Source: Acholeplasma sp. (GTDB lineage: Bacteria; Bacillota_I; Bacilli_A; Acholeplasmatales; UBA5453). From it: DNA of 64,000 nt. The translations under genes and the position numbers were made by a program. The notes under the pieces were generated by a model. It was not told the origin of the DNA. It was given only the letters and a program-made list of their open reading frames with translations, and made no database searches. Below are positions 3,401-48,098 of the stretch, one piece after another; within the stretch, counting starts at the first letter, position 1; every line of letters starts with the position of its first letter. The DNA lies in assembly GCA_036677365.1 (NCBI GenBank), contig JAVBWN010000012.1:1-64000 (forward strand), in the 5' to 3' direction.

Positions 3401-4612
3401 ATGATCATTAAACCAACACTTAGAAACAATTTATTTTTAAATGCGCACCCGTTGGGTTGTGCTCAATATGTCAAAGATTTATTTACTGAGGCGAAACAAC
3501 TGCCTCATTTCAACGGACCTAAACGCGTCCTCATCATTGGTGGGTCATCTGGGTATGGGTTATCGAGTCGTGTAACATTGGCTCAAAATGCCCAAGCATC
3601 CACGATCAATGTGTCTTATGAATCTAAACCCAAAGATCAAAGAACAGGGACGGCAGGGTATTGGAATAATGTGGCTTTTTTAGAACAGGCCAAGGCTTTA
3701 AATTCAAAACACTTTGACATCATTGGGAATGCCTTTAGTCATCAAACCAAAGCCATCACCATCCAAAAAATCAAAGAAACCTTCGGACAAATCGATTTAC
3801 TGGTGTATTCCTTGGCTTCAGGGGCGAGACCGAACCCAGATACGGGCGAAGTGGTGTACTCAGCCATCAAACCCATTGGGGAAGATTTGAATGGCAAAAC
3901 TGTCGATATCGCATCCAAAGAAATTAGAGATATTTATATTAAAGCAGCGACAAGAGAAGAAATCAAAGGCACCGTTTACGTCATGGGTGGTGAGGATTGG
4001 CAACTTTGGGTAGAAGCACTGGAAGCGGCGGGGTGTATCGCCAAGGGATTTAAAACCATATCCTATTCTTATGTGGGTAGTGGCGCGATGGATCAGATTT
4101 ACCGCAGCGGTACGATTGGTAAAGCCAAAGACCATTTAGAAGATACTGCCTTATCGATGAATACTTGGCTTCAAGACAAATACCAAGGTGAAGCGGTCAT
4201 ATCATCTTCTAAAGCAGTCACGACCAAAGCGAGCGTGTTCATCCCTGGGTTTGTTTCTTATATCTCTTGTTTATTTGAAGTGATGAAACAACTAGGCAAC
4301 CATGAATCCATCCTAGTCCATAAACACCGCTTATTTAAAGATATGGTGTATGGAGACAAACGATTGGTTGACCATAAAAACAGAATTCGGGTCGACCACT
4401 ATGAAATGGAACCAAAGGTACAAGAACAAACCAAACATTTATTAAAACAATACCAAGACGAATCCATATTCAAATTATCAGGCACTCAATTATTTTTAAC
4501 TGAGGTACACCATAACAATGGATTTGGTTATGAAAACATCGATTATGAACAAGATGTATCATTAGAATCTTTAATACCAAAGTTAGACAATTTATTCGAT
4601 TACAACGAATGA
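3401..4612 (+). CDS. fabV: Enoyl-ACP reductase FabV / trans-2-enoyl-CoA reductase
   Basis: NAHPLGC, GPKRVLIIGGSSGYGL, TAGYWN, VYSLA, VMGGEDW, Y...GTIGKAK. Confidence 0.9.
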   Translation: MIIKPTLRNNLFLNAHPLGCAQYVKDLFTEAKQLPHFNGPKRVLIIGGSSGYGLSSRVTLAQNAQASTINVSYESKPKDQRTGTAGYWNNVAFLEQAKALNSKHFDIIGNAFSHQTKAITIQKIKETFGQIDLLVYSLASGARPNPDTGEVVYSAIKPIGEDLNGKTVDIASKEIRDIYIKAATREEIKGTVYVMGGEDWQLWVEALEAAGCIAKGFKTISYSYVGSGAMDQIYRSGTIGKAKDHLEDTALSMNTWLQDKYQGEAVISSSKAVTTKASVFIPGFVSYISCLFEVMKQLGNHESILVHKHRLFKDMVYGDKRLVDHKNRIRVDHYEMEPKVQEQTKHLLKQYQDESIFKLSGTQLFLTEVHHNNGFGYENIDYEQDVSLESLIPKLDNLFDYNE

Positions 4613-4619
4613 TTAAGTA

Positions 4620-4650
4620 AAGAGCCATTGGACACCAATGGTTTTTTCTT
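4620..4650 (+). terminator. Intrinsic terminator
   Basis: GCCATTGG-aca-CCAATGGT plus T run. Confidence 0.75.
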
Positions 4651-4824
4651 TAGAAGACCTATTCAAAGGGGTTATTGGTGTAAAGTTCACATATTGTTCA
4701 CACTTCATTCAAAAAGACATCTGTATAATGTGATACAATGATAAATAAAGTAGGGCATATGAATACTTGACACTATTTTATTAACAAATTCTTGGCTCAA
4801 ATACATATAAAGGGGTATCGTTCT

Positions 4825-7518
4825 ATGAAACAACTGATCAAAAAACCTTGGTTAATAGGCATCGTGATTACAACCATCCTGTCATTGATTTCACTCATCC
4901 ACCTGTGGGTGTTATCGTTGGATTTACTTTCACCCTATGACACTGAAAACTTCTTTTCTTTGGCGAATGACATCGCTAATGGTGGGGTTTTGGTTATTTT
5001 TTCTTTCGTTGTTGTCGTATTGTTTTATGTGTCATTAACAACCATTTTAATCTCGATATTCGGTACCATTCGAAAAACGGCTTGGGGCATGATGCCCTCG
5101 GTATTTTTCTTACTGATATTTGAAAGTGCCTTGATTGTATTCCACGTCATTAATACGTTGCTTTCTACATTCGCACTCGTATTAATCATTACTGGTATTG
5201 TGTTGGTTATTTCGGTGGTGGTTTTACTGGTCTATCGTAAACGACTACTGATTGGAGATACACCCAACGTAAATCCAACTGTTGAAGTCAAACCTTTGGG
5301 TAAAGCCATTTTAAGGGCAGTATTGATCATCGATATCGTTTCAATTCTAGTCTTCATGACGACCTTCATCGTACCACTATACTCCTTAAACGATGTATCA
5401 CCAGATTACCACGCCATCATCATTCGGGCTTTATTCTTTGGGGATACGAATCTCGAAATCATTGGATCCTTCTTAGTCAATTTCACCATTTTATTGGGTG
5501 TGTTCCTCTATTTTTCAGATATTATTTCTCATTATTTCTTCGATCAAGAACGATTCATTCAAAAATCACGTACATTGATCAATGCACTCTTCGTGTCTAC
5601 GTTAATATTCTTCATTGCGGGTTTAGCGCTCAATATCTATTACACCTTAGAAGGCAATGAAGTCGTGACATTCGCCTTCATTCCCATCGCGATGATGGTA
5701 TTTGTCATTTTCGCATTCGCCGTATTAAAAGGAAAATACCACATCGATCACCCAATGACGTATAAGCAGTTTAAATTGAAATACGCTAAAATCGAGCCAT
5801 TGATGTATGTGATTTTACTCACAGCGGTTACAGCATCCTTGTTATTTATGCCAATCATCGTGATGCAAATCACATTCGGAAACTTTGAGTATACCGTCCG
5901 TTTAACCGGCCTCAATATCTTATTAGATTATCCAAATCTAGACCCTGGTTACCGTATGGTGGCTTATGTGTTGGTTGTGATGTTGATCTCCTCAGGGCTC
6001 AGCTTGGTGATTGCTATCAGCAGTTATTTATCGAACTTTAAGCAATTCAATTCGATCGTTAAAATGGCAACCATCGTCAATGTGTTCTTTGTCTTCATCA
6101 TCGCGATTTCGGGGTATTATTTCCAAATCGCTCAAGAAATCAATCAAGCATTGATGCTCGATATGTTTGATTTTTATGGCATCACATTGCCTGAAGGTCT
6201 AGAATATGAATACAACATTGGTACCGATACGATTTATATATTGATTGCTTCTGTTGTGGTACTCATTTTAATGTTTGCGAGAAAAGCATTCGAACAACCA
6301 ACTGAACCGCTTTTCGCAACCCCACTGCCACAATCAGAAGACACAGAAACAGAAGTGGAATCCGCTTCTAATGAACCGACCGAATCAGAAGAAACCGTGA
6401 TCACGTCTTTTGACCCCTGCCCAGCATTTACCGATTTGGATCTTAAAGCAGACCAATTTAAAGCGGACATTGAAAAACGAAACGCTCAAAAAACCAACCA
6501 TACCACACTCAATCAGTTGGTGAATTTCGTTGTAGATTATGCAAAAAATTCCAGACTACATTTATCCTATACCCCAGAAGACATCGCGACATTTGTTGCG
6601 GGGATGGGGGCTTCTAAACTATCGATTTTACAAGGGATGTCAGGGACTGGTAAAACCAGTTTACCGAAGATTTTCGCTGAAGCGGTCTATGGGAACTGTG
6701 ACATCATTGAAGTTGAATCTTCCTGGAAAGATAAAAATGAGCTCTTAGGTTATTACAATGAGTTCTCCATGAAGTATACCCCTAAAAAGTTCACTCAAGC
6801 ACTGTATAAAGCTGCGTTAAACCCAGATATTTTCACATTCATCTTGCTCGATGAAATGAACTTATCGAGAATTGAATATTACTTCTCAGACTTCTTATCC
6901 TTGATGGAAAATGAAGAACACATGAGAGAGATTAAACTCATCAACATCAAGCTTTCAAGAAAAGTAGAAGGACAAGATTTCGATTACCTCGCTTTAAATG
7001 AAGGCCATACCTTAAAGGTACCAAAGAACGTTTGGTTCATTGGTACCGCCAATAGAGATGAATCGACCTTTGTTATTTCCGATAAAGTCTATGACCGAGC
7101 ACACACGATGAACTTCACGAAGCGCGCACCTAAAGTTAGAAACTACGCTGCACCAATGGAAAAACAGTTCTATGATTATGAAACCATGAACCGTTTATTT
7201 GTGGATGCGAAAAAACAAGGCAACTTTGACGCTGAAAACAGTGAATTGATCAAGGCGGTTGAAGTCTTACTTGCTCCATTCAACATATCCTTTGGTAACC
7301 GTATTTTGAAACAAATTGAAGAGTTCGTCAACATTTACCAAGCGTGTTTTGACAAAGAAAATGTCGAAAGTGAAGCCGTTGAAAAAATCCTTTTAAGCAA
7401 GGTTGTTTCTAAACTGGAAACAAAAACATTAGACGACAAAGAAAAACTAGAACAAGAATTTACGAAATTAAAACTACACCAATGTGCCGCCTTCATTCGA
7501 CGTCTCGATAATGACTAA
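4825..7518 (+). CDS. Polytopic membrane protein (about 12 TM) fused to a McrB-like AAA+ NTPase (NxD type)
   Basis: Twelve hydrophobic stretches in the first ~490 aa, then an acidic linker. Walker A GMSGTGKT (6634-6657), LLGYYNEF, Walker B LLDEMNLSRIEYYFSDFLS, IGTANRDEST (N at 7051), KVYDRA. ATG 4825 preferred (AGGGG upstream). Confidence 0.85.
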   Translation: MKQLIKKPWLIGIVITTILSLISLIHLWVLSLDLLSPYDTENFFSLANDIANGGVLVIFSFVVVVLFYVSLTTILISIFGTIRKTAWGMMPSVFFLLIFESALIVFHVINTLLSTFALVLIITGIVLVISVVVLLVYRKRLLIGDTPNVNPTVEVKPLGKAILRAVLIIDIVSILVFMTTFIVPLYSLNDVSPDYHAIIIRALFFGDTNLEIIGSFLVNFTILLGVFLYFSDIISHYFFDQERFIQKSRTLINALFVSTLIFFIAGLALNIYYTLEGNEVVTFAFIPIAMMVFVIFAFAVLKGKYHIDHPMTYKQFKLKYAKIEPLMYVILLTAVTASLLFMPIIVMQITFGNFEYTVRLTGLNILLDYPNLDPGYRMVAYVLVVMLISSGLSLVIAISSYLSNFKQFNSIVKMATIVNVFFVFIIAISGYYFQIAQEINQALMLDMFDFYGITLPEGLEYEYNIGTDTIYILIASVVVLILMFARKAFEQPTEPLFATPLPQSEDTETEVESASNEPTESEETVITSFDPCPAFTDLDLKADQFKADIEKRNAQKTNHTTLNQLVNFVVDYAKNSRLHLSYTPEDIATFVAGMGASKLSILQGMSGTGKTSLPKIFAEAVYGNCDIIEVESSWKDKNELLGYYNEFSMKYTPKKFTQALYKAALNPDIFTFILLDEMNLSRIEYYFSDFLSLMENEEHMREIKLINIKLSRKVEGQDFDYLALNEGHTLKVPKNVWFIGTANRDESTFVISDKVYDRAHTMNFTKRAPKVRNYAAPMEKQFYDYETMNRLFVDAKKQGNFDAENSELIKAVEVLLAPFNISFGNRILKQIEEFVNIYQACFDKENVESEAVEKILLSKVVSKLETKTLDDKEKLEQEFTKLKLHQCAAFIRRLDND

Positions 7519-9083
7519 TGGGTGATGCTATGGATAAAAAACAGCTCGATGCCTATCAGCGATTTTCATCGCTGCTTTCAGGGATTGAAACCTTTGTTGA
7601 AAAACACCCACAACTCACTTATATAGAATTTGATTACTATGTGGTCCACGATATGACCTTGTTTTCGATTGAACCTGAGTTTGATTTTGAACAACTTGAA
7701 CAATCGATTCAAGTGGTTAAAAAATCGATGCCAGCCTCGAAAAGAATTTTTAATAAACCCATCATCGTACTCAAAGATACCGATGATGTTTTACCTGTAG
7801 AAAACACCAGAATCATCAATCAAAATACACTGTTACACCTGGCTAACCATAGCCAACACGTCTCTAATTTAACCAAAACCGGGGTCAGACCGAGAAAGTT
7901 GTTAACTCGTATTTATGAAGATGATTACGCCATTTACGAGAACATTGTTTTTTGTAACTACATCGATGAAGTACTCTATTTCGTCAATAAAAATAGACGT
8001 ATTTTAAACAGTGTCATCTATGCTTCTGACATCATGGAATTCAATTTATTGGAAAAAGCCAATCACTTGAAATACTTTCTTGCCTTGGGTAAATTGCACA
8101 CAGGGTATATCCGCGATTTTAGCCAATATTTCAATTTATCCAAAGCCATGCTGAATGAATTGCTCGGTCTGACCAAAGTCATTCAACCCAGATTGAGTAA
8201 ACCTGTGTATAAAAAGAATAACCACAGGAATCCCAATCTACCACTCAAAAAGACCAACATCTTTTTGATGCAAAAAGACTATAAGATGGTATATAAAACC
8301 TACAAGTACTTACTCAATACCCCAAATAGCACACCTAAAGAATTACAAACAGTGGATTTTGATCGGTTTAGAAAAAACTATATACTATATGTACAACTGT
8401 TATCGATATTCGCAGCTGGTCATTTCAACTTCGTGTTGGATTCAAAAACCAAGATGAAACTGAATGCACTCGATGTGAACTTCACATTTAAAGATTGGAA
8501 ACTCAACATTCAAAACCTCAACAATGAGGCTGTCCTCTTATATTTTAAAAAAGATCAAGCGTATCGTATGATGATTGTGGGATCAGATACCGATGAAGAG
8601 ACCATTCGTGTTCAAAAATTAAGACGTCGCTTACATGAAGTGGTTGTGGTTAATCCTTTAGATGATGACTACAATAAGCGTGAAGATGTGTATGTTAGTA
8701 TGTCTGATATCGACTCCTTCAGACGTTTACAACAAATGCTACTTCGCGGGATGATACATAGCGATACCGAACGTACCGTTTGCCCATTTTGTGGGGGACA
8801 TCTCGAAAAAAATAAGCGACACGAATATCATCAATGCAGTGACTGCTTAACTCAAATCAAAACGGGTGTTTGTCCAGACACCAAACAAGCGTATTTTTAT
8901 ACAGATACACCACATCGAAGAAAACAAATGAATGTGGGGTCACTATCGGCTGAGAATGACCAATGGTACTATGAAAGACAAGTGGAGTCACTCATGTATT
9001 TTAGAAACATCACCAAGATTGACCCAAATGGTAAAATCATTTGTCCACATTGTCATAAAGTACATAAAGAAACCATGTTATAA
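7518..9083 (+). CDS. DUF2357/McrC-like partner with C-terminal Zn-binding Cys clusters
   Basis: TAATG overlap with the McrB-like gene. RPRKLL...DDYAIYENIVF and KKTNIF...DYK motifs resemble DUF2357. C-terminal CPFC, CSDC, CPD, CPHCHKVH. Confidence 0.65.
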   Translation: MGDAMDKKQLDAYQRFSSLLSGIETFVEKHPQLTYIEFDYYVVHDMTLFSIEPEFDFEQLEQSIQVVKKSMPASKRIFNKPIIVLKDTDDVLPVENTRIINQNTLLHLANHSQHVSNLTKTGVRPRKLLTRIYEDDYAIYENIVFCNYIDEVLYFVNKNRRILNSVIYASDIMEFNLLEKANHLKYFLALGKLHTGYIRDFSQYFNLSKAMLNELLGLTKVIQPRLSKPVYKKNNHRNPNLPLKKTNIFLMQKDYKMVYKTYKYLLNTPNSTPKELQTVDFDRFRKNYILYVQLLSIFAAGHFNFVLDSKTKMKLNALDVNFTFKDWKLNIQNLNNEAVLLYFKKDQAYRMMIVGSDTDEETIRVQKLRRRLHEVVVVNPLDDDYNKREDVYVSMSDIDSFRRLQQMLLRGMIHSDTERTVCPFCGGHLEKNKRHEYHQCSDCLTQIKTGVCPDTKQAYFYTDTPHRRKQMNVGSLSAENDQWYYERQVESLMYFRNITKIDPNGKIICPHCHKVHKETML

Positions 9084-9096
9084 GAGGTATATAGTC

Positions 9097-9750
9097 ATGA
9101 AAAAAATCGATATTGAACACTGGGACCGTAAGCAAACTTACGAGTTCTACAAAGATTTTAGTCATCCCATGTTTAGCATCACGGTATCACTCGATGTTAC
9201 CAAACTCTATCAAGCAGTGAAAGAAAAGCACACGTCTTTTTATCTAAGTTTTATGCATCTAGCGATGACAATCCTAAATGAGATAGATGCTTTTAAGTAC
9301 AGATTTGACGGAGATACCCCCGTTATATTCGATACAATTCACCCTTCATTCACTGACCTTATTCCCAACACAGAACGCTTTAAGATAGTCACGATAGACT
9401 ATGTATATAATAGAAATCAATTCATCCTTGAAGCCAAACGAACATCTCATGATCAAGGGGATACATTCATCGATTTGTCCAAAGAAGCAAGGATGGATTT
9501 GGTCTATATATCGACCTTTCCATGGGCTACCTTCACACAGATTACACACGCCAATAATCCAAATTCTAAAGATGCAGTACCTCGATTAACCTGGGGAAAA
9601 TATCAGGAAATCAACGGTACCAAAAGGATACCATTATCGATTGAAGCACACCACGCTTTTGTCGATGGCTATCATGTGGGAAAATTCATCCAACTTTTAC
9701 AAGAAGCACTCCATCAAGAAAAAAGGACTGAACATCCTGAAGAAAATTAA
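9097..9750 (+). CDS. cat: CatA-type chloramphenicol O-acetyltransferase-like protein
   Basis: IDIEHWDRK, ISTFPWATF, PRLTWGKY, catalytic HHAFVDGYH. GAGG RBS before ATG 9097. Confidence 0.85.
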   Translation: MKKIDIEHWDRKQTYEFYKDFSHPMFSITVSLDVTKLYQAVKEKHTSFYLSFMHLAMTILNEIDAFKYRFDGDTPVIFDTIHPSFTDLIPNTERFKIVTIDYVYNRNQFILEAKRTSHDQGDTFIDLSKEARMDLVYISTFPWATFTQITHANNPNSKDAVPRLTWGKYQEINGTKRIPLSIEAHHAFVDGYHVGKFIQLLQEALHQEKRTEHPEEN

Positions 9751-10273: not shown

Positions 10274-10321
10274 TTGACTTATGGAAAAATATCATTATAT
10301 TGAAGGGTACAAGCGCTTTCA
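10274..10321 (+). promoter_or_regulatory. Sigma70-like promoter with downstream cre/LacI-like site
   Basis: TTGACT 10274-10279, TATATT 10296-10301, TACAAGCGCTTTCA 10308-10321. Confidence 0.5.
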
Positions 10322-10343
10322 TATCCAAAGGAGAATATTGTCC

Positions 10344-13300
10344 ATGAAAAAAATCATTACCCTTATTTTCTTCGCATGCATCAGTCTATTTTTGATGGCC
10401 TGTGAAGAGAAAACACCCAATTATGATTCGATCATTCAATCCAGTTTAATCGATATCCCAGAAGAGGTTACAGAGAACATATCCTTACCAACATCCCTCG
10501 AAGTTGAATCTATCGGTTTTGATGTCATTTGGTCATCAAGTCTACCGAATGTCATCAGTTCCTCAGGGGTGGTCAATAGGCCAAATCATACCACTGGTGA
10601 TATTGAAGTCACCCTTACAGCGGTGGTAACAACCACGAATTTCAGTAAAACACTGACGTTTGTGGTGACAGTTAAAGCATTACCGATACCTACATTTACA
10701 GTCACATTTGATGTAGATGGTGGTTCAGCCGTTAGTAATCAGACGGTAAACGCTGGTGCTAAAGTGACAGAACCGATTGTTCCAACCAAAGATAATCATT
10801 CATTTATGGGTTGGTTTACAGATAGCAATCTAACGATGCCATGGGTATTTACAACCGATGTCGTTACATCAAATATAACCCTATATGCAAAATGGGAAGT
10901 CATACCAGAAGTCTATACAGTCACTTTTGAAAATGAAGATGGGTCTGTTTTATCCACTTTAAATATAGAATCAGGTTTAAAAGTAAGTGCACCTACGAGC
11001 TCACCAGAAAAACTAGGGTATACATTCATTGGTTGGAAACATAACGATAGTCTATTTGATTTTGAAACAACCATCCAAGAGAATATCACGTTGAAACCAG
11101 CGTTTGAAATCACAAACTATACCATCAGTTATTGGAAACCTGTGGATTCAACCATCATTGAGATGGGTGATGATATCTATACCATTGAATCACAACCTGT
11201 CCTTAGAAGCATAGAAATGACTGGTATGATTTTTATAGGTTGGTTTACACGCCCAGAAGGTGGTACATTGGTTGAATCGATTCCTCTAGGGTCCACAGGC
11301 AATTATGAATTGTATGGTCGATTTGAACCAGACCCTAGTATCCCAACAGGTACTTTATTATATACCCCACAAGATGTCGTAGACCTCATTACCAACGGGG
11401 CAACCGGTGAAGTGCATTTGATGAACGACATCGATATGACCGGCACAACCCTCACAGGCAGTCCGAATACTTTTGGTGGGATTTTTGATGGTCATGGATA
11501 CACAATTCGTGGCGCAGTCATCAACGCATCCGGCAATAAGATGGGTTTCTTATTCAAAGAAATCTTAAAGGGTGGTGTCATTAAGAACATTCAATTTGCG
11601 GACTCTATCCACAATGGTGGAGGCACCTCTGAATCTTCAGCGTTCATTTCTGCTTTCGCCCAAGGCGGCGCAAGATTTGAAAATATATCCTTTTATAATG
11701 TATCCGTCAGACATTCAGGTTCCTATGCAGCACTCTTATTTGGTGATGTGATCAATGACTCATCTGAAACCACGATTACCATTCGAAACATTACGGTTAT
11801 CAATGATGAAAACCACTGGATTGAAGGTAGTTCTTATGTCGGTGGTTTGATTGGCGCAGCTAGAAAAGCCGTCACCATTGATGTTGAAAATGTCTATTTT
11901 GATTCTAAAGTGGTTGCACCAAACCAAGCAGCTGGTGCCATCATGGGACGTTTAAATGCAGCAGGTATTACATTAACTGTGAGACAAATTGTCGTAAAAG
12001 GTAGTATCTCTTCCGGCAAGAACGTTGGTTCGATTTTAGGTACCAACATTTCTGGGTCTACAGTGATCGCAGATAAAGTATTCATATCAAATATCACCCA
12101 AACTTCTGGTACCAACACCAATAAAATCGGTGCGGGTAACCTACCAAGTGGTTCAACAGCGACATTAACCCATTTATACTATGCAAGTGAAACCACTGTA
12201 TTTATCGTGGGTACAGCACCAATCGCTATGCCTGAAGGTACAGGTTTAACCTCCGCTGAAATCACCCAAGCTTGGTTTGATCAAAGTGGATTTAACGCTA
12301 CATTCTTCAAATATCATAACGGCTCTATTGCAAGACAATCGGAAAATGCAGGTCCAGTTGTAGAAACAGGATTTACCATTTCCACCACACAAGTGAAGAA
12401 GTATTACTTGGTAGGTGAAGAATTAGACTTATCCAACTTGGCTGTATACGCCACATTCTCCGATGGTTCAAGCACATTACTAGAAGCTACTGCTTATCAA
12501 GTCATCACAACCGCCTTTAACAACAGTGTCGCGGGAGAATATAGCATTGAAGTACTATATGGTGGTGAAACCAAGTCATTTAAAGTCGATGTGGTCTCTG
12601 TGACACACGTGCTTGCGGATGATTTGTTGATGAAACAAACCTACACCATCGGATCCACAATCAATACCGATGGTTTGGTGGTAAAAGCGATGTTGACCGA
12701 TGGTGGGTATCTTAAATTAAATCCAAGTGATTATACACTAGATGTTTCTGCAGTGAACTTCAATGCCGCTGGCCATTATCAAGCCAGTATTTCTTATAAG
12801 ACTTTTGATGTGGTACATATCGATATTTATGTTCATGAAATAGATGCTACAAATCCAACGAGTGTTTCGATTTATGTCGATCATGCACACATGGGTTTTG
12901 ATGGTGAAATCATTGAAAATAAGGTCATGTTTACATCAGTTAAATCGGCATTGCAATATTTAGTCAATCAAAACTATCCAAGCAATACGCTAAAACATAT
13001 CTACATCGCCGATGGCATTTACCGTGAAAAGATTACAGTGACCGTTCCAAATTTAGTCATGATTGGTGAAAGTCAAAATAATACCGTGATTACTTATGAT
13101 GCAGCCTCTGGTACTCAACAACCTAATGGTGCAACCTGGGGGACTCAAGGATCAGCGACTGTATCAATCAAGTCTTCAGCTACAGGCTTCATGGCGAAAA
13201 ACATCACTTTCCAAAATGACTTTAATTATAATCAATCCACCATTTCCGATAAACAAGGGGTTGCTTTGGTCAACGAAGCAGACCAAGTCATTTTCTACCA

Positions 13301-13889
13301 AGTCTCCTTTAAAGGGTATCAAGATACGTTATATGCCAAGTCTGGTCGTCAGTATTATTTAAATGTTTATATTGAAGGTGTTGTCGATTTCATTTTTGGT
13401 AATGGGGGTCCAGCCTTCTTTGAAAACTCAGAAATTCGTTCCTTAGCACGTGCTACCGGTGTGATTTCAACCAATAAAGGTTATAATGTTTCAAATACAC
13501 TCTTAATCAGCATGGGTTATGTCTTTTATAACAACACATTTACTTTTGAAAATGGTGTACCTGTAGGTTCTGTCGATTTGGGTAGACCTTGGGATAAGAG
13601 TGCAGCGATTGCCTATATTAACAACACATTTGATGTCCACATCAGCAGTAGAGGTTGGACTGAAATGTCAGGTAACCTACCTCAAGATGCGAGATTCTTC
13701 GAGTATGAAAATAAAGATATCAATCAACAAATTTTAAGCACAACCACCAACGGTAAAACATTGGGTTCAGAATGGGTTGCTTCATTCATCGATAAGTCGG
13801 TGGTGTTTGGTATGAACAATGGTTTGGTCACATTCAACAGTGAATGGTTATATCAAAACGCACTCACCTATTTACAATCTCTACAATAA
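10344..13889 (+). CDS. Multidomain lipoprotein with C-terminal pectin methylesterase (CE8)
   Basis: Lipobox LMAC; Ig-like domain; 3 InlB B-repeats (TFDVDGGS...FMGW...TLYAKW); beta-helix-like region; 2 Big_3-like repeats; CE8 motifs QGVAL, GYQDTLY, DFIFG, LGRPW. Confidence 0.85.
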   Translation: MKKIITLIFFACISLFLMACEEKTPNYDSIIQSSLIDIPEEVTENISLPTSLEVESIGFDVIWSSSLPNVISSSGVVNRPNHTTGDIEVTLTAVVTTTNFSKTLTFVVTVKALPIPTFTVTFDVDGGSAVSNQTVNAGAKVTEPIVPTKDNHSFMGWFTDSNLTMPWVFTTDVVTSNITLYAKWEVIPEVYTVTFENEDGSVLSTLNIESGLKVSAPTSSPEKLGYTFIGWKHNDSLFDFETTIQENITLKPAFEITNYTISYWKPVDSTIIEMGDDIYTIESQPVLRSIEMTGMIFIGWFTRPEGGTLVESIPLGSTGNYELYGRFEPDPSIPTGTLLYTPQDVVDLITNGATGEVHLMNDIDMTGTTLTGSPNTFGGIFDGHGYTIRGAVINASGNKMGFLFKEILKGGVIKNIQFADSIHNGGGTSESSAFISAFAQGGARFENISFYNVSVRHSGSYAALLFGDVINDSSETTITIRNITVINDENHWIEGSSYVGGLIGAARKAVTIDVENVYFDSKVVAPNQAAGAIMGRLNAAGITLTVRQIVVKGSISSGKNVGSILGTNISGSTVIADKVFISNITQTSGTNTNKIGAGNLPSGSTATLTHLYYASETTVFIVGTAPIAMPEGTGLTSAEITQAWFDQSGFNATFFKYHNGSIARQSENAGPVVETGFTISTTQVKKYYLVGEELDLSNLAVYATFSDGSSTLLEATAYQVITTAFNNSVAGEYSIEVLYGGETKSFKVDVVSVTHVLADDLLMKQTYTIGSTINTDGLVVKAMLTDGGYLKLNPSDYTLDVSAVNFNAAGHYQASISYKTFDVVHIDIYVHEIDATNPTSVSIYVDHAHMGFDGEIIENKVMFTSVKSALQYLVNQNYPSNTLKHIYIADGIYREKITVTVPNLVMIGESQNNTVITYDAASGTQQPNGATWGTQGSATVSIKSSATGFMAKNITFQNDFNYNQSTISDKQGVALVNEADQVIFYQVSFKGYQDTLYAKSGRQYYLNVYIEGVVDFIFGNGGPAFFENSEIRSLARATGVISTNKGYNVSNTLLISMGYVFYNNTFTFENGVPVGSVDLGRPWDKSAAIAYINNTFDVHISSRGWTEMSGNLPQDARFFEYENKDINQQILSTTTNGKTLGSEWVASFIDKSVVFGMNNGLVTFNSEWLYQNALTYLQSLQ

Positions 13890-15028: not shown

Positions 15029-15856
15029 TTAAGGTTGGAATGCTCCAAATAAAACTAACCAAGTTAAAATGGTCTTCGCTACTAAGGAAAGAATGATATA
15101 ACCTCTTTCACCATAAAGATAATTTTTGAACTTACCTTTTCCTAAGTATTGTAATACCATGTTGACTGGGAAGGTGTTGAAAGCAACAAAGTAAGTCACT
15201 AGAATAGCCCAAACGAATCCTGGAACAGCATCTAGATTAGGGTTAACACCAATGTAGAATGCGATGGCAACCCATGGGGCTAAACCAATGATGGAACCGA
15301 AAATGAATGGCAACCAATTGACTTTTTTACCAACTTTGGATTCACCAGCATTGAGTAATTCCATATCTAAGCCGAATAAGTTCATCGCAGCATTGGCTAA
15401 AGCAATGAGCGCAAATACAGCGACGTCTCTAACGCCAAATAAAGAAGAAATCAATACGATCATCAAAGAAGAAGATAAGGCATATTCATACCATCTGAGC
15501 TTATTGATACCGACTTTAAGGTCAGCGACATATTTGTCTTTATACGGAATAGCAATAATGAAATGGAACAATGCAGATATTAATAAGAAGCTCGCGGTTA
15601 ATGGTAAGAATGGTAATTCAAATAAGGTTTCAGTGGGTGTTAAGACCAAGCCTTGACCTTCAACAAAGTTTAAGTAATTCCCAATGACAGGAATTGTAAA
15701 TGTTTGTGTACCAGTGCCATCCAAATTTGGATAAACTAAAAATGCAAATAGCATCATCAAGACGCCTTGAACGAGGTGAACTGAGCCCATGATTTTATTG
15801 AAGCGAATTAAGCTTTCAAATGCGAGAGGGTCTCTTTTTAACGCTTTTTCAGACAT
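15029..15856 (-). CDS. heR: Heliorhodopsin
   Basis: 7 TM; HLVQG, ALFH, RWYEYALSS, MNLFG, GERGYIILSLVAK (retinal-binding Lys). Confidence 0.95.
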   Translation of the reverse strand: MSEKALKRDPLAFESLIRFNKIMGSVHLVQGVLMMLFAFLVYPNLDGTGTQTFTIPVIGNYLNFVEGQGLVLTPTETLFELPFLPLTASFLLISALFHFIIAIPYKDKYVADLKVGINKLRWYEYALSSSLMIVLISSLFGVRDVAVFALIALANAAMNLFGLDMELLNAGESKVGKKVNWLPFIFGSIIGLAPWVAIAFYIGVNPNLDAVPGFVWAILVTYFVAFNTFPVNMVLQYLGKGKFKNYLYGERGYIILSLVAKTILTWLVLFGAFQP

Positions 15857-21922: not shown

Positions 21923-22888
21923 ATGAAAAGTTTATTGACCAACGAAGTAATCACATACCAAAACTTCGAGATGCTTATGAAAGACATTTTGGATTTAGCA
22001 TCACAAATCATGCCAGAAAATACCATTTATATCAATTCCTTGAATGACATTACTCAAGTGACACTGAAAGTAGCGAATAACGACCGTAACATTCGATTGA
22101 ACGAAGGTACGACGATACCGGTTGAGAATGCCATCTGTAATCGAATCGATTATCAAGCAGGCAAACCATTGATTTTTGAAAATATCCGTGAAGCAACCGG
22201 TCTAGAATCGGTTCAATCCACCATTGAATCAATCAATATGGGTGCTTACTTAGGTATCCCTATCGCACTCAAGAATGGCAGTCGATTCGGAACACTGTGT
22301 GCTGCCAATAGTCAAGCTCACCCATTTGACTCAAAAAGTGTGGAACTCTTACAAAAACTAGCTAAGATGTTTGCTTACTATTTAGAACTTGAACATTTGG
22401 CTTATCGTGATTCCTTGACAGGCATTGCTAATCGTCAACAACTATTGAAGTTTTTTGATGACGCACCTTATGAATATGGTACGATGCTGTTGATGGATTT
22501 GGATAATTTCAAAAAAGTCAACGATACCTATGGTCACGATGTCGGTAACCTTGTTTTACAGGAATTCAGTCAAAAGCTGGATGAGTTTGCTAAACAAACC
22601 AAGTATGGGTATCCGATTAGACTAGGTGGGGATGAGTTTGTTGTTATGTTACCACTATGTAACGATATCCAGTTGGTCAATGAAATGACACAACAACTTT
22701 TGGATTCATTAAAGACATGGAACACACCAATCGGTGAGATTCAATTAACGGCCAGTGTTGGTGGCATATTATACAAAAAGGATAAGAGTACACCAATTAA
22801 AAACCTATTGAAACAAGCAGATTTAGCCCTTTATGAAGCGAAAAGAATGGGTAAGAACACCTATAGAATTGTGAATCATAACCTATAA
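21923..22888 (+). CDS. GAF-GGDEF diguanylate cyclase
   Basis: GAF (YLGIPI...FGTLCA); DSLTG, DLDNFKKVNDTYGHDVG, RLGGDEF, ADLALYEAK. Confidence 0.92.
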   Translation: MKSLLTNEVITYQNFEMLMKDILDLASQIMPENTIYINSLNDITQVTLKVANNDRNIRLNEGTTIPVENAICNRIDYQAGKPLIFENIREATGLESVQSTIESINMGAYLGIPIALKNGSRFGTLCAANSQAHPFDSKSVELLQKLAKMFAYYLELEHLAYRDSLTGIANRQQLLKFFDDAPYEYGTMLLMDLDNFKKVNDTYGHDVGNLVLQEFSQKLDEFAKQTKYGYPIRLGGDEFVVMLPLCNDIQLVNEMTQQLLDSLKTWNTPIGEIQLTASVGGILYKKDKSTPIKNLLKQADLALYEAKRMGKNTYRIVNHNL

Positions 22889-31702: not shown

Positions 31703-31749
31703 TTGAAATTTATTAAAACTAGTTGTATAATGTAATTGAGGTGAGGAAG

Positions 31750-32970
31750 ATGAACCAAAATTGGATAAAGAGAATGAGTTATTTGGAACAACTCATTCAA
31801 TGGAAAGATCATAAAGTAGTCAAAGTAATTACTGGTATAAGACGTTCGGGCAAGTCGACTTTACTTAACAACCTATTTACATCATACTTATTAAGTCATG
31901 GCGTACGCGAAAGTCAGATTATCTCCATTAATTTGGAATCCATAGATAATGAGCATCTCTATAATTATAAAAGTCTATATGAGCATATTACGGATAGATT
32001 AAAACCAAATGAGATGAACTATGTTATCATCGATGAGGTTCAAAATGCTACTAATTTTCAGAAAGCAATCGATAGTCTTTATATCAAAGATAATGTAGAT
32101 ATTTATATTACGGGTTCAAATGCATTTATGTTGTCAGGTGAATTAGCTACCTTACTATCCGGGCGATATGTCACGATTGAAGTTCTACCTTTATCTTTTA
32201 GTGAATATTTATCATCTTTAGATGCTACATATAATATCGATGTGGCTTATCGTGACTATATCAAATGGGGTGGTTTTCCATACGTCACCCAACTGAATAA
32301 AAATGAGGCTTCAATTCGACAGTATCTCGAGGGTATTTATAACACCATTTTGAAAAAAGATATCATCATTCGCAACAGAGTATCAGATATTTTTGTACTA
32401 GAAGATGTGATTAGATATGTATTTGATAATATTGGTAATATTCTCTCATCCAAAAAAATTAGTGATACACTGACATCAAGCGGTAAAAAAATCTCAAGAC
32501 CAACCATTGACACATATTTGGGTTATTTGATTAATGGGTATGCTGTCTACAAAGTACAAAGATATGACATTAAAGGTAAAGAGTATTTGAAATCACTTGA
32601 GAAGTATTATGTGACAGATATTGGACTAAGACATTATTTGCTTGGGTTTAGAAACATAGATCATGGACATCTTCTTGAAAATATCGTCTTTCTTGAACTT
32701 AAAAGAAGAGGTTTTGAAATTTATATCGGTAAATATGATAACAAAGAAATTGATTTCGTTGCTAAAGACAGCAAGAGGATTATATATATTCAAGTGGTTG
32801 AATCCATGAAATCGATCGAGGCTATGGAACGAGAACTTTCACCCCTTAAAATGATTAGAGACTATAATCCAAGGGTTGTTTTGACAAGAGATTATGATTT
32901 AAATGCCTCCTATGATGGAATTCAAGTATTGAATGTTCTAGAATGGCTAACAAACGAAATAGATTTTTAA
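31750..32970 (+). CDS. AAA_14 / DUF4143 ATP-binding protein
   Basis: GIRRSGKST, IDEVQ, TGSNA, PLSFSE, GGFP, D.GLR, LENIV, EIDFV, IQV. Confidence 0.9.
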   Translation: MNQNWIKRMSYLEQLIQWKDHKVVKVITGIRRSGKSTLLNNLFTSYLLSHGVRESQIISINLESIDNEHLYNYKSLYEHITDRLKPNEMNYVIIDEVQNATNFQKAIDSLYIKDNVDIYITGSNAFMLSGELATLLSGRYVTIEVLPLSFSEYLSSLDATYNIDVAYRDYIKWGGFPYVTQLNKNEASIRQYLEGIYNTILKKDIIIRNRVSDIFVLEDVIRYVFDNIGNILSSKKISDTLTSSGKKISRPTIDTYLGYLINGYAVYKVQRYDIKGKEYLKSLEKYYVTDIGLRHYLLGFRNIDHGHLLENIVFLELKRRGFEIYIGKYDNKEIDFVAKDSKRIIYIQVVESMKSIEAMERELSPLKMIRDYNPRVVLTRDYDLNASYDGIQVLNVLEWLTNEIDF

Positions 32971-41526: not shown

Positions 41527-41714
41527 CGTCCTAAAGCCATTTCGAGTTTTGATTAACTTAGTCTCATAAGTATTTGTAAACATTATCAAACCATTCAACC
41601 AAAGTACTGGTAAAAAAAATCTAAAAATTAATCTATTGTTTTTTTCTAATGGTGTTATAATGATTGTGTAACTTATCGCATGGTTTGAATCATTTTTTTA
41701 GGAGGATTCAACAG

Positions 41715-42410
41715 ATGAAGAAATGGATGATGTTGATAATACTATTCGGTATGATGACGCTTTCTGGTTGTATCCGAAGTGATTTTTCAAAATCAAAAAA
41801 ATACTTCGTTCATGTCTACTATTATGAAGACGTGATGTCTAGACCTTACACAGTGTATGAGAACGAAACGCTAGAAGAAGCGTTAAGAATCCCTAACAAA
41901 CCATTTCATCGATTCTTATATTGGGAAACACCAGCAGGAGAAAAATATTACCCAGAAGATACCATCCATCAAAATCTATTCTTGACACCAATTTATGAAG
42001 AAATTCTTCATTTAGTGACATTTGAAACCAATGGTGGTACACCCATAGAACAAGTATGGGCCAGGGAAGGTACTTTTTATGAACCCCCTACACCTACCAA
42101 AGAAGACTACGTGTTTTACCGCTGGTGTACAGATATACACTTAAACCATGCATATCAGCCTTATGAACCATTAAAGTCATCTGTGACTCTATATGCTCAT
42201 TGGGTTAGACGTAATTACATCATCACTTTCTATTTTTCTGAAATAGTGTATTATGTATATTCAGCAAATTCAACTCAACCTTTTCCAATCATAGATACAA
42301 GCCGTTATAATAATTTCTCTTATTGGTATGAAAAAGATCCAAATGTACCATTTGTCATCCCAGAAACCATGATTAAAAGAGACATTGTTTTGTATGCGAA
42401 ATATAATTAA
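41715..42410 (+). CDS. InlB B-repeat lipoprotein
   Basis: LSGC; TFETNGG...PTKEDYVF..W...TLYAHW; GGAGG RBS. Confidence 0.82.
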   Translation: MKKWMMLIILFGMMTLSGCIRSDFSKSKKYFVHVYYYEDVMSRPYTVYENETLEEALRIPNKPFHRFLYWETPAGEKYYPEDTIHQNLFLTPIYEEILHLVTFETNGGTPIEQVWAREGTFYEPPTPTKEDYVFYRWCTDIHLNHAYQPYEPLKSSVTLYAHWVRRNYIITFYFSEIVYYVYSANSTQPFPIIDTSRYNNFSYWYEKDPNVPFVIPETMIKRDIVLYAKYN

Positions 42411-42433
42411 TAACAAAGAAAGAAGGTAATAAA

Positions 42434-42961
42434 ATGAAAAAAGTGTTTGTTCTATTTGTTTTACTCAATTTGGGATTTCTATTGATGGGTTGTCAAACCA
42501 ATGTAGACAATGAACCAGATCCTTCTGAAATGGTCAAAATATCAATTTTTTTACCAAACGATCAATATAAGGCTTCATTATCTTATCAAGTACCTAAAGA
42601 TGTTCGTTTCCTACCACTGATACCAACCACTGAAATCGAAGGCTACACTTTTGTTGGCTATGAAGATTACCGAGGTTATCCAATCACAGAATACACTACC
42701 TCAAGTGATACGATGGCCATTTACGCGATTTATACGGTCAATGAACATACCTTATACTTTCATGTGAATGGTGGTGTAGAGATATCACCAATGACTTTTA
42801 AATACAGTGAAACCATTGAAACCAATGATTTTATTCCAACCAAAGAAAACCACACGTTTCTAGGGTGGTTTAAAGATGAGACACTGACTCAACCAATCGG
42901 TATATTCTTCGCAGAAGACAAGGATGTCCACATCTATGCGAAGTGGACATTAAACGAGTAA
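42434..42961 (+). CDS. InlB B-repeat lipoprotein
   Basis: LMGC; FHVNGG...PTKENHTFLGWF...IYAKW. Confidence 0.82.
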   Translation: MKKVFVLFVLLNLGFLLMGCQTNVDNEPDPSEMVKISIFLPNDQYKASLSYQVPKDVRFLPLIPTTEIEGYTFVGYEDYRGYPITEYTTSSDTMAIYAIYTVNEHTLYFHVNGGVEISPMTFKYSETIETNDFIPTKENHTFLGWFKDETLTQPIGIFFAEDKDVHIYAKWTLNE

Positions 42962-42989
42962 AAATCAGACATCGAAAGAAGGCAAGATA

Positions 42990-44678
42990 ATGAAGCAGTT
43001 TACTTGGATTATATTTCTCTTATTAAGCATCACTTTGGGCGGTTGTGTTGAAACAAACATCACGAATGGCCCTACCCAAGACCCTTACAAATACACCTAT
43101 GATTTGACAATAAACAATTTTACCGACCACATGGATTTTAGTCATCGTCAAGTGGCTATTGAAGGTGGTAATAAAAAACAAGAAGTATTGTTTGAAATGA
43201 AATACCCAGATGGTATCCTCATGGATGTTCAAGTAAAAGTACTTTTACAAACCCAAGTGCTCACCTTAGGCAATACGATTTATAGTGATGAATTCTCTTA
43301 TAATTTCACCAAAAAAACATCATCTACAGGGTATTTAACCTACCCAGCGATGAGGGATTTGTTCTTAATCACGATCACAGAAATATCTGGTAAAGTCTTG
43401 ACGAATGATGAAACCATTGAGAATGCGAAACAAGCCGCTATACATGCGAAACAAGGGTTAGATCAAATGCTTGAAAAATTCCTTCAACCATTTAACACCC
43501 TATCCACAGAAAGTTATATCCACATGACTGTAAATGGCGAAACCACGACCAGTTTTGTCAAACAAGCTTTCCGTAATGACCCCTATTATAACGAGACGAT
43601 ATATTCCGATAACCGTGGTGTTTTAATGAAAGAAAACAGTGATGGTAACATAGATGTGTTTTCAATCCAAGAATATCAGCTCAAAACTTATATTGAAAAA
43701 GAATTAATCATTCTTAGTGAAGACATCGATAAAGTGAGCAACGATGAGATGTTTGAATTAAAGGATTCATGGACTTATCGTGTTGAAAATGGGGATTACT
43801 TGGTCAGTGGATCGAGTAAAGAGCTATTTAATGTCCTATTTACCGATGATGAAACCATAAGACAATGGAATAACACCATCCGTAATAAAACAATCGAAAT
43901 CGTGTTTGCTGATCTAGGTACGAGGTTGCTTGTATCGGTAGAGTTGATGGTAGGGTTAAGTCAAGTCAAGATTGAAACGTATTATACCTTTAATTCATTG
44001 AATGCGTTGGATTTATCTCAAGTGATTGAACTACCTCCAAAACACCCCGATTTGGCTTATCAAGTCACGGATTTGAGTCAAACAAAAGAAGGCTTTATGT
44101 TACCCAATGTAAGTTATTTTTATCAAATAGAAGTGACAGGAGGGACGTATGTCTTTGATGTATCATACCCAGTCAATGTAGAACTCTTAGATGAGTTTAG
44201 AAATCCAATTGAACCAGAAGCATGGGTAACATTCGATCACCTGTTAGGTTCGTTAGACCGTAAGTATTCATTAGAAGCTGGGATTTATTACGTTAAGATG
44301 AATCACAATCGTGACTCGATGATTAATTTTTCCATTACCATGCATCATCTTGAGGATTTATATGATACCATCGGCTCACCAAATGATGACATTTTACTCG
44401 TCGATTGGTTTGAACTGAGTATTGAAGGTGAATACGATGAGGTATATGTATACTATGAATCATTTGAAGAAGGTTATATCGTATTGACTCATACAAACCA
44501 AACACCATTAAACCTCATGTATGTGTACAATGATTCGCTATTAAATAACCAGTTTGCATATACAACCAATGGTGAATTACGTATTCAAGTGGTTGTAGGC
44601 ATTAATTTATTAAGATTCAACGCACCAGAGGCTTTAAATGCCGCCCTCAGTGTGACATTCGTAAAATTGATTGACTAA
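42990..44678 (+). CDS. Hypothetical lipoprotein, distant paralogue of 33209-34822
   Basis: LGGC; shared ordered motifs AG(I)YY, Y(E/D)TxG, IExEYD. Confidence 0.75.
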   Translation: MKQFTWIIFLLLSITLGGCVETNITNGPTQDPYKYTYDLTINNFTDHMDFSHRQVAIEGGNKKQEVLFEMKYPDGILMDVQVKVLLQTQVLTLGNTIYSDEFSYNFTKKTSSTGYLTYPAMRDLFLITITEISGKVLTNDETIENAKQAAIHAKQGLDQMLEKFLQPFNTLSTESYIHMTVNGETTTSFVKQAFRNDPYYNETIYSDNRGVLMKENSDGNIDVFSIQEYQLKTYIEKELIILSEDIDKVSNDEMFELKDSWTYRVENGDYLVSGSSKELFNVLFTDDETIRQWNNTIRNKTIEIVFADLGTRLLVSVELMVGLSQVKIETYYTFNSLNALDLSQVIELPPKHPDLAYQVTDLSQTKEGFMLPNVSYFYQIEVTGGTYVFDVSYPVNVELLDEFRNPIEPEAWVTFDHLLGSLDRKYSLEAGIYYVKMNHNRDSMINFSITMHHLEDLYDTIGSPNDDILLVDWFELSIEGEYDEVYVYYESFEEGYIVLTHTNQTPLNLMYVYNDSLLNNQFAYTTNGELRIQVVVGINLLRFNAPEALNAALSVTFVKLID

Positions 44679-44702
44679 TAATGAGAGATAAGAGGTATAG
44701 CA

Positions 44703-45386: not shown

Positions 45387-45651
45387 GTACAATCAATGAC
45401 GTTTAAAAGGTCAGTCGTTTTTCGACTGACCTTACCATGTAATGATTAAAATATTATTCTTTCGGTAGTATAATTATTTTTTTCTAATGGACAAAAGATG
45501 CAAATTATTCGTTTTATTATATGTATGGGATTATTAATGAAAAAGCTTATTACATGGATGAGGATACAGAATAATCATAACTCAATTGTTTGTGATAATG
45601 ATTTGGATGATTAATAGTTAACAATTAACTCAATCACAATGGAGGAATACC

Positions 45652-48084: not shown

Positions 48085-48098
48085 TTATGAGGTCATAA

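Follow-up and report, generated by a model that had tools for sequence, protein, structure and literature searches.

Introduction

The current picture of McrBC systems is one of soluble machines in which a small N-terminal domain reads modified DNA or, in the NxD branch, perhaps RNA. Here, we describe two neighbouring genes, A and B, in which an McrBC-type motor and its activator appear to be joined to a large membrane domain without detectable relatives. The genes lie in a 64,000-nucleotide stretch of DNA from Acholeplasma sp. (assembly GCA_036677365.1, contig JAVBWN010000012.1, positions 1 to 64,000; hereafter the window, to which all coordinates refer unless another locus is named). Gene A (4825-7518; 897 amino acids, aa) codes for a polytopic membrane domain, an acidic linker and an NxD McrB-type AAA+ nucleoside triphosphatase (NTPase), and gene B (7518-9083; 521 aa) for an McrC-like partner of A; both genes, and all parts of them located below, are on the plus strand. 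Judged by sequence, the two genes form an operon for a membrane-integral member of the NxD McrBC family and, per the literature searched, a previously undescribed variant of it.

Comparison with E. coli McrBC, a type IV restriction system (6hz4, 6ut6, 7vsr), brings out the likeness of the motor and of the gene layout: the AAA+ domain of A is detectably homologous to that of McrB, it carries Walker A, Walker B and the Asn/Asp signature in the same position, and the genes of E. coli likewise form a two-gene, B-then-C operon with overlapping stop and start codons. However, the signature is NxxD in E. coli and NxD in A, a DNA-reading N-terminal domain stands there where A has 12 membrane helices, and the partner in the window shows neither detectable McrC similarity nor a conserved D...DxK triad.

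A large, uncharacterised branch of McrB GTPases is marked by NxD, usually followed by Glu or Asp (PMC11090510; what we say of this source refers to the part of it that was accessible). To this clade belongs the CnuB-CnuC pair of the CoCoNuT systems, in which NxD is followed by Glu, as it is in A; a terminal zinc (Zn) ribbon and an inactivated nuclease fold, moreover, are both reported for some CnuC proteins, and B is DUF2357-like, ends in a Zn ribbon and has a nuclease fold that may be inactivated (PMC11090510). The nearest relatives of A (40-49% identity over the AAA+ domain) have no predicted transmembrane (TM) helix, and 3 of the 18 that were aligned carry coiled-coil-like N-terminal stretches. 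However, the model of A has TM helices and a disordered linker where CoCoNuT proteins have a coiled coil, the nuclease tandems of CoCoNuT have no counterpart here (Pfam finds no HEPN, CSD, YTH or other such domain in A, B or their neighbours), the model of B lacks an N-terminal Ig-like beta-sandwich, and the pair in the window is chromosomal and conserved with its lineage, whereas CoCoNuT genes lie in defence-associated neighbourhoods in the accessible part of PMC11090510. With neither a coiled coil nor a nuclease tandem, the pair is not a CoCoNuT.

A membrane-attached NxD McrB, like A, is also found in CoCoPALM, in which the McrB is fused to an FtsB-like single TM helix and a coiled coil; this system is named, and little detailed, in the accessible part of PMC11090510. 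Relatives with one to four TM helices, in some followed by a coiled-coil-like stretch, do occur among the matches of A. However, these CoCoPALM-like segments are unrelated to the four-helix repeat of A (hhalign, 0.3-9.3%; see below), A is polytopic (8-12 TM helices in the family) and free of coiled coil, and no signal-peptidase or pilus genes are found near the pair, the neighbours of which are fabV, a CAT-like gene and a DUF7670 gene. The unrelated membrane part and the lack of pilus genes nearby rule out CoCoPALM as well.

Outside Pfam, the closest hidden Markov model (HMM) is PDC-M26A of PADLOC, a candidate defence protein that A matches at E 1.2e-53. The match concerns the AAA+ part only (in the best stretch, residues 555-707 align with profile positions 292-442 of 724), and all 15 relatives tested match similarly, with or without a membrane domain. 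B matches no PDC-M26 model, its sole PADLOC match being LmuB (E 0.003), and no paper on PDC-M26 was found in the literature. We do not assign the pair to PDC-M26, since the match covers the motor half only and the model for the partner goes unmatched.

In FtsH, TM helices hold an AAA+ hexamer beneath the membrane, and in Zorya and Kiwa a membrane component is coupled to a cytoplasmic effector directed at nucleic acid. These systems serve here as functional analogies for a membrane-tethered ring or sensor, no sequence or fold relation having been looked for. Literature searches returned no description of a polytopic-membrane McrB, no paper describing the fusion, so that the architecture does not appear to have been characterised already, and no work on McrBC and membranes in Acholeplasma. 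No polytopic-membrane McrB is described in the accessible text of PMC11090510, and its supplements (one of them accessible in part) make no mention of Acholeplasma, transmembrane, Tenericutes, Mycoplasmatota or membrane; among the relevant literature found, CoCoPALM is named only in the CoCoNuT paper and its preprint.

The role that we tentatively favour, with a probability of about 0.45, is that of an immune module, by now fixed in the lineage, that watches for nucleic acid coming in across the membrane of a wall-less cell. This step is the weakest of the argument; it stands only slightly ahead of a non-defence role and of a membrane-permeabilising effector of abortive infection, and the order of the three could easily change. 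If an immune role were true, the pair would be an McrBC-based addition to the short list of defence systems that act at the membrane or through it, and this in organisms with no other barrier. If it were not, the pair would be a clear case of a motor of the restriction type put to use in cell biology, and a non-conflict role would be the first for the McrBC family. Either way, the pair offers a testable handle on the function of the uncharacterised NxD GTPases.

Organisation of the gene pair

The open reading frame (ORF) of gene A extends over 4792-7518 and ends with a TAA stop codon at 7516-7518. The ATG at 4825 is likely to be the start, because a Shine-Dalgarno-like AAAGGGG, read directly from the sequence, lies 9 nt 5' of it (4809-4815) and homologues begin with MK.(L/M)FKK. 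The translational overlap described in an earlier note on this DNA is present as TAATG at 7516-7520, where the ATG of gene B (7518-7520) shares the A of the TAA of gene A; a second in-frame ATG occurs in gene B at 7530. A hairpin, CCATTGG-ACA-CCAATGG, followed by TTTTTT, was read directly on the plus strand at 4625-4648, 3' of the enoyl reductase gene, and a scan lists the same stem on the minus strand. Its position between the enoyl reductase gene and A suggests that A and B are a transcription unit of their own; a promoter scan did not rise above chance, with 21 hits where 22.8 were expected.

Two loci in public genome assemblies, L001 and L002, were matched by protein A alone in a tblastn search of genome contigs. 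Identity to A was 92% and 74%, respectively, over the best segment and 92.7% and 73.8% over the full length. The overlap of A and B recurs in L001 and is replaced by a 5-nt gap in L002. The two genes are neighbours in the window and at both of these loci, and they bear consecutive locus tags in three more assemblies. Thus, A and B travel together as a pair. The possibility that the fusion in A is an assembly artefact, which the earlier note had left standing, is refuted by the full-length fusion with the same partner in L001 and L002 and by dozens of representatives at 50% identity. The sequence features that the note had claimed for the pair were all found where it had placed them.

The AAA+ domain of protein A

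The McrB-type AAA+ domain occupies residues 540-897 (6442-7515) and contains every motif quoted for it in the earlier note (GMSGTGKT, TANRDE and DRA among them). Walker A is GMSGTGKT (residues 604-611; 6634-6657), Walker B is FILLDEMN (residues 672-679; 6838-6861), the NxD signature reads GTANRDE (residues 740-746; 7042-7062) and VYDRA follows at residues 755-759 (7087-7101). Column identity is 0.66-0.89 at residues 571-780 and 811-870, and 0.46-0.47 at residues 541-570 and 781-810.

A profile of the domain built on 17 relatives picked E. coli McrB as its best match in the PDB (hmmsearch, E 1.7e-7). The AAA+ protein next in line came at 0.012, and MoxR chains were absent at E≤1. In hhalign, the domain of A was related to E. 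coli McrB at 97.7% (E 1.6e-12, 247 columns). Searched as a single sequence, A matches E. coli McrB only at E 0.037. By profile, then, the domain is of the McrB type and not of the MoxR type, as had been proposed. The NxD type of signature was confirmed over 144 aligned AAA+ domains, namely 140 of the 150 best representatives (ten were left out for want of a Walker A match or sufficient length), the window protein, E. coli McrB and two plasmid proteins: the one-residue spacer is found in 141, E. coli McrB has NTAD and two rows have no match to the pattern. On this sequence evidence, A belongs to the NxD branch of McrBC.

The AlphaFold2 model was matched by Foldseek with MoxR-like, MCM, dynein, NorQ and McrB chains (6hz4_E and 6ut6_A), all of the helix-2-insert type and within E 5e-6 to 1e-4. 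As modelled, therefore, the fold alone does not separate McrB from MoxR. It is nevertheless very improbable that A is a MoxR-type chaperone ATPase, fused by chance to a membrane protein and placed beside an unrelated zinc-finger gene, with no tie to McrBC. The best Foldseek match is indeed the MoxR-like 2r44 (E 5.4e-6), with NorQ and CbbQ matching as well, and one source labels the homologue P0055 a 'MoxR-like ATPase'; yet the sequence profiles pick McrB, A has the McrB-specific Nx(x)D motif, and the partner aligns with DUF2357 proteins (see below) and not with a VWA protein, no VWA domain being detected by Pfam in B or in the neighbouring genes. This chaperone reading is already disfavoured.

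A variable head and a shared junction

The acidic linker noted before between the helices and the motor is a putative disordered tether of 38 residues (491-528; 6295-6408) with ten Asp or Glu and no Lys or Arg; residues 495-526 have a pLDDT (predicted local distance difference test) value below 50 in the AlphaFold2 model. Compared with L002, the linker is the least conserved part of A (40.8% identity, against 69.6% for the membrane domain and 84% for the AAA+ domain). It leads into a junction motif, FDPCPAFTDLD (residues 529-539; 6409-6441), that is 90-100% conserved in the family, with D539 invariant and D530, C532, P533 and F535 conserved in at least 90%. Its counterpart in the alignment is (F/C)P.L..ID in relatives whose N-terminal modules differ, being either coiled-coil-like stretches or one to four TM helices. 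The sharing of the motif with such relatives indicates, at the level of sequence, that a variable head meets the motor at a homologous junction. To say, as the earlier note did, that a specificity module has been replaced by a membrane domain is thus a fair reading, the domain sitting just before the shared junction, where relatives carry other modules.

Four cysteines of the cytoplasmic part of A (532, 625, 841 and 887) are conserved in at least 90% of the family; Cys532 lies within FDPCPAF, and no tool suggests a function for them.

The membrane domain of protein A

The description of the first ~490 residues as hydrophobic helices with 12 TM segments was borne out by a Kyte-Doolittle scan, which gives 12 hydrophobic segments within residues 11-485, and by the AlphaFold2 model (mean pLDDT 84.8, built on 62 family sequences), the helices of which match these segments. 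A nucleic-acid-reading domain at the N-terminus is absent, residues 1-490 being occupied by the 12 TM helices.

The domain looks like three tandem four-helix repeats: repeat 1 (TM1-4, residues 1-150; 4825-5274), repeat 2 (TM5-8, residues 155-310; 5287-5754), which holds the invariant P184 and the nearly invariant P287, and repeat 3 (TM9-12, residues 318-490; 5776-6294), with an outside beta-hairpin at residues 343-361. This view rests on profile matches that are high between the three segments (hhalign, 81.7% for repeat 1 against repeat 2, 85.1% for repeat 1 against repeat 3, and 91.6% with E 8.3e-7 for repeat 3 against repeat 2; alignments of 102-138 columns) and low both for reversed-sequence controls (1.9-20.9%) and for the unrelated TM N-termini of four relatives with one to four TM helices, which gave the 0.3-9.3% cited above against the family repeat. 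Relatives with about eight TM helices align only from query residue ~163 on, so that these variants lack repeat 1.

Across the family, loops 0, 2, 8 and 10 and the linker after TM12 are rich in Lys and Arg (means of 2.0, 2.6, 4.6, 1.7 and 5.1), and the alternate loops are acidic or poor in Lys and Arg. By the positive-inside rule, this alternation predicts an N-in/C-in topology with the AAA+ domain in the cytoplasm. Column identity in the membrane domain is 0.27-0.47 (family alignment), and only P184, G266, P287, L326, G362, A380, G430 and Y432, none of them charged, are conserved in at least 80%. Because almost no polar residues are conserved, a transporter or an enzyme is unlikely, and the domain would rather be a scaffold or a sensor.

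The same features bear on whether the membrane domain is itself an effector. In an abortive-infection system of this kind, a signal sensed by B would set off an NTP-driven movement of the ring that opens or rearranges the ~72 helices of a hexamer, and the cell would be depolarised. Weak sequence constraint is common among pore-forming effectors, and the membrane domain is weakly constrained; moreover, 8-12 helices are kept throughout the family though one would suffice as an anchor, and B has no recognisable nuclease site (see below), so that another effector would be needed. However, a disordered tether of ~40-50 residues is a poor transmitter of force between the ring and the membrane domain, the helices are not lined by charged or polar residues that are conserved, and it would be unusual for a suicide module among metabolic genes to be kept by vertical descent throughout a lineage. 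We regard this reading as unlikely.

Residues 1-490 have no match in Pfam or the PDB, and no relative of the domain outside the family was found in Pfam, the ESM Atlas or Foldseek searches of the PDB, in which the matches listed are all AAA+ proteins. In the ESM Atlas, the best scores of the domain, 0.81-0.82 to unnamed clusters, are at the level of shuffled sequences. A search with the 490 residues returned ten proteins, all of them partial or truncated members of the same family, and no stand-alone relative among the 8000 word-sharing candidates scored. BILF1, LMBD1 and serotonin receptors, which appeared in the PDB search with the full-length profile, were rejected as compositional matches to the membrane part. 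The three-times-four-helix domain is a candidate for a new membrane fold.

Protein B

The partner had been called DUF2357-like, and this held in profile-profile comparison (96-97%), though not as a Pfam call in B itself. When B was run by tblastn against 72,556 plasmids, five records were matched, at E 2e-7 to 2e-4 and over B residues ~43-306, three of them annotated DUF2357; the same five plasmids are also the top five matches of the AAA+ domain of A (34-38% identity). Two of the five regions were analysed. In both, Pfam places DUF2357 above its cut-off (L004:4716-6542 and L005:4545-6719), and directly upstream lies an AAA_5 gene, coding for 788 or 796 aa and containing GTANHD or GTANTD. The B family aligns with the first of these DUF2357 proteins at 96.7% (hhalign, E 3.4e-10, B residues 76-331) and with the second at 96.1% (E 3.7e-9, B residues 58-308), which delimits a DUF2357-like helical domain at B residues 58-331 (7689-8510). 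Common to B and both plasmid proteins is a PRK.L.R..EDDY.IYEN segment, which in B is the invariant-rich PRKLLTRIYEDDYAIYEN (7890-7943). The monomer model of B (pLDDT 73.1; predicted TM-score, pTM, 0.72) has low confidence here, residues 107-140, which hold this conserved segment, falling below pLDDT 50; the segment might fold only on binding, which would fit that low confidence.

Beyond this domain, likeness to known proteins fades. The C-terminal half of B scores at most 12.5% in hhalign against the plasmid partners and E. coli McrC, and B has no sequence match in the PDB. It contains a compact beta/alpha domain (B residues 312-415; 8451-8762; blocks mostly with pLDDT above 90) that may be a degenerate PD-(D/E)xK remnant: in the alignment rows displayed, position 346 keeps an acidic residue, E374 is conserved, and position 376 is Val, Ile, Met, Lys or Pro, not a conserved Lys. 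A score of 0.82 to PDDEXK_7 in the ESM Atlas is a weak lead. We lean towards a nuclease site that, to judge from these residues, is inactivated or non-canonical. Weak nuclease-like Foldseek rows (Bax1, EcoT38I, Nt.BspD6I and Card1) lie above E 1e-3 and were not taken as evidence.

The C-terminus is a Cys-rich Zn-ribbon region (B residues 420-516; 8775-9065) with CPFC...CSDC, then C452...CPHC..H. C422, C425, C440, C443, C452, C509, C512 and H516 are invariant in the family, and Pfam Zn_ribbon_IS1595 is matched by all 44 family members (best E 2.4e-6).

Family, distribution and origin of the fusion

Clustered at 90%, the full-length homologues of A run into the hundreds; identity is 55% or more throughout the best 120, almost all of which have 858-916 aa. 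For B, 553 homologues were found at E≤1e-3, the best 120 being 55-81% identical and 514-536 aa long. Against 1.84 billion representatives at 50% identity, A gave 7848 matches at E≤1e-3. Of the 140 representatives retained, at least ten TM helices are predicted in 55, five to nine in 18, one to four in 12 and none in 55, those without TM helices matching A over the AAA+ domain only, at 40-49% identity. The fused, polytopic form accounts for about 70 representatives at 50% identity. Named sources are Acholeplasma vituli, Paracholeplasma morum, Mariniplasma anaerobium, Acholeplasma sp., Acholeplasmataceae and Izemoplasmatales, with HGW-Tenericutes-1 and -5, Tenericutes MO-XQ and metagenome-assembled genomes labelled 'Bacilli' or 'Bacillota'; where classified, they belong to the Mollicutes orders Acholeplasmatales and Izemoplasmatales. 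Thus, the pair is a family across these two orders, conserved with the lineage.

In a FastTree tree built from the AAA+ domains, with the very long branch of E. coli as root, one group with a support of 85 gathers 73 rows, of which 56 have at least ten TM helices, 14 have five to nine and three are fragments. Eight rows with one to four TM helices form a separate clade (support 100) nested among the forms without TM helices. A single origin of the polytopic fusion is likely on this sequence tree.

Split or truncated copies could be pseudogenes, sequencing errors or, for a split between the membrane and AAA+ parts, a genuine two-gene form; because such relatives exist, the pair is probably dispensable in some lineages. 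In the complete genome of M. anaerobium, the copy P0422 ends before Walker B. Of the split pairs P0397 + P0399 and P0419 + P0418, one is divided between the membrane and AAA+ parts and one inside the AAA+ domain; where the split falls exactly between the two parts, both halves are on one contig of 143,795 bp.

Genomic context and inheritance

Upstream of A lies a trans-2-enoyl reductase gene of the fabV type (3401-4612), and 14 nt after gene B starts a CAT-family acetyltransferase gene (9097-9750, plus strand). A Pfam scan confirmed these flanks and found no methylase, helicase or HEPN domain beside the pair, as the earlier note had said. The other 55 kb of the window hold genes for sugar metabolism, transporters, vitamin B6 synthesis, TldD/PmbA, heliorhodopsin and surface proteins; none of the 48 ORFs scanned has an integrase, transposase or restriction-modification domain in Pfam, and within ~20 kb of the pair PADLOC gives generic matches only.

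Identity to L001 is 92.7% for A and 93.7% for B, and 91.1% for an RCK-channel-like gene, 93.2% for a permease, 95.5% for fabV and 80% for the DUF7670 gene. In codon usage, A and B are the 6th and 10th closest to the window mean among 47 genes, and no break in GC content is seen. Divergence like that of the neighbours, typical codon usage and the lack of a GC break make the pair look inherited with the lineage rather than borne on an island. Its flanks are kept in L001 (92%) and not in L002 (74%). Neither 72,556 plasmids nor 50,697 phage records yielded the fused form, and none of the matching records (260 plasmids and two phages) extends beyond the AAA+ part of A. This absence is weak evidence, since the collections probably contain few plasmids or phages from this lineage.

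These results bear on a non-defence role, in which an McrBC-derived, NTP-driven ring, tethered to the membrane and with its nuclease inactivated, would have been domesticated for cell physiology in wall-less Mollicutes; we considered membrane-linked handling of chromosome or RNA, coupling of nucleic acid to the membrane, and membrane remodelling or quality control. In favour of such a role is not only the 64-kb metabolic neighbourhood, with nothing nearby in PADLOC, the codon usage and divergence like those of the neighbours and the lack of a fused copy in the plasmid and phage collections, but also the spread of the family over the two orders at 55-63% full-length identity and nearly constant length, the very strong constraint on most of the AAA+ domain (column identity 0.66-0.89) and a partner in which no conserved nuclease triad is seen. 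The 'repurposed membrane machine' that the earlier note had offered as an option fits a lineage-wide family of typical codon usage at least as well as does a mobile defence system. However, the roles of McrBC relatives, characterised or predicted, are all conflict-related as far as known from the accessible part of PMC11090510, and the closest HMM outside Pfam is the candidate defence protein PDC-M26A. Moreover, synteny is already lost at 74% identity (L002), and the split or truncated copies, including that in the complete genome of M. anaerobium, argue against an essential function. On balance, we hold a non-defence role to be possible but doubtful.

Proposed mechanism

For the role in immune surveillance that we tentatively prefer, a mechanism can be sketched by analogy. 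As in the E. coli McrBC structures and in systems described in the accessible part of PMC11090510, A would form a hexameric ring, here under the membrane, and B would insert its PRK...EDDY..YEN segment into the ring and switch on hydrolysis of NTP, probably GTP. From the anatomy of A, the target-reading head would have been swapped at the junction motif for the membrane module; because of this swap, the NTPase cycle would be coupled to the membrane, for localisation or sensing, and not to a modified base. At the inner side of the membrane, the Zn-ribbon end of B would be the likely site of contact with nucleic acid.

Several results weigh against this reading. The defence role suggested in the earlier note finds no support in the context: the neighbours are metabolic, there is no island and there are no mobile genes, PADLOC gives no match above the generic within ~20 kb, and no fused copy was found on a plasmid or phage. 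For the motor, A scores below the Pfam cut-offs of AAA (19.5 against 21.2 bits) and AAA_5 (18.2 against 22 bits; the latter cut-off is reached by 10 of the 20 relatives scanned, at 22.6-30.7 bits), and Foldseek ranks the MoxR-like 2r44 slightly above McrB (3.3e-5). For the partner, Pfam gives no DUF2357 (PF09823) match at E≤5, only weak Zn ribbons, and DUF2357 is outside the 25 commonest of the 78 families matched by 44 relatives of B at that threshold; against E. coli McrC, B scores 0.1% in hhalign (below 1% for its beta/alpha domain), Foldseek searches of the PDB and BFVD gave its model no match at E≤1e-3, and no conserved D...(D/E)xK triad is seen in the alignment rows displayed. As to the fusion, four rows with eight TM helices fall outside the membrane group, in a basal polytomy, the support of 85 on the key branch comes from FastTree only, and some relatives are split or truncated.

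Other features of the neighbourhood and the window

The CAT-family acetyltransferase scores 135.9 bits against an NCBIfam CatA cut-off of 270, and we refer to it as a CatA-like enzyme; its gene follows the pair in L001 and not in L002, so that it is probably not part of the system. Two differences distinguish L001 from the window: a family-2 glycosyl hydrolase (L001, 2252-3970) between the RCK-channel-like gene and the permease, and an RCC1-repeat surface protein with a 162-aa ORF (L001, 11915-14714) between the CAT-like and DUF7670 genes. As these three ORFs are missing from the corresponding places of the window, the neighbourhood gains or loses genes, with A and B remaining in place.

The only strong match to the defence library among the ORFs tested is an ATPase with AAA_14 and DUF4143 at 31723-32970 (plus strand), 23 kb from the pair, which matches PDC-S01, a single-gene defence candidate of PADLOC, at E 2.6e-152. 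A diguanylate cyclase with GAF and GGDEF domains (21923-22888, plus strand) gives weak PADLOC 'Cas10' matches (~E 1e-7), which reflect the palm domain common to GGDEF proteins and not a CRISPR system. In 64 kb, no Rfam family reached its gathering score, and no tRNA, rRNA or riboswitch model was matched.

A heliorhodopsin gene (15029-15856, minus strand; Pfam PF18761, E 8.5e-83) lies 6 kb downstream of the pair. Between the two, at 10281-13889 (plus strand), is the gene for a surface protein of 1202 aa with a pectinesterase domain, Listeria-Bacteroides repeats and Big_3. Further along, at 41664-48800, four small proteins with Listeria-Bacteroides repeats are encoded around a fused ABC/FtsX transporter gene (45652-48084).

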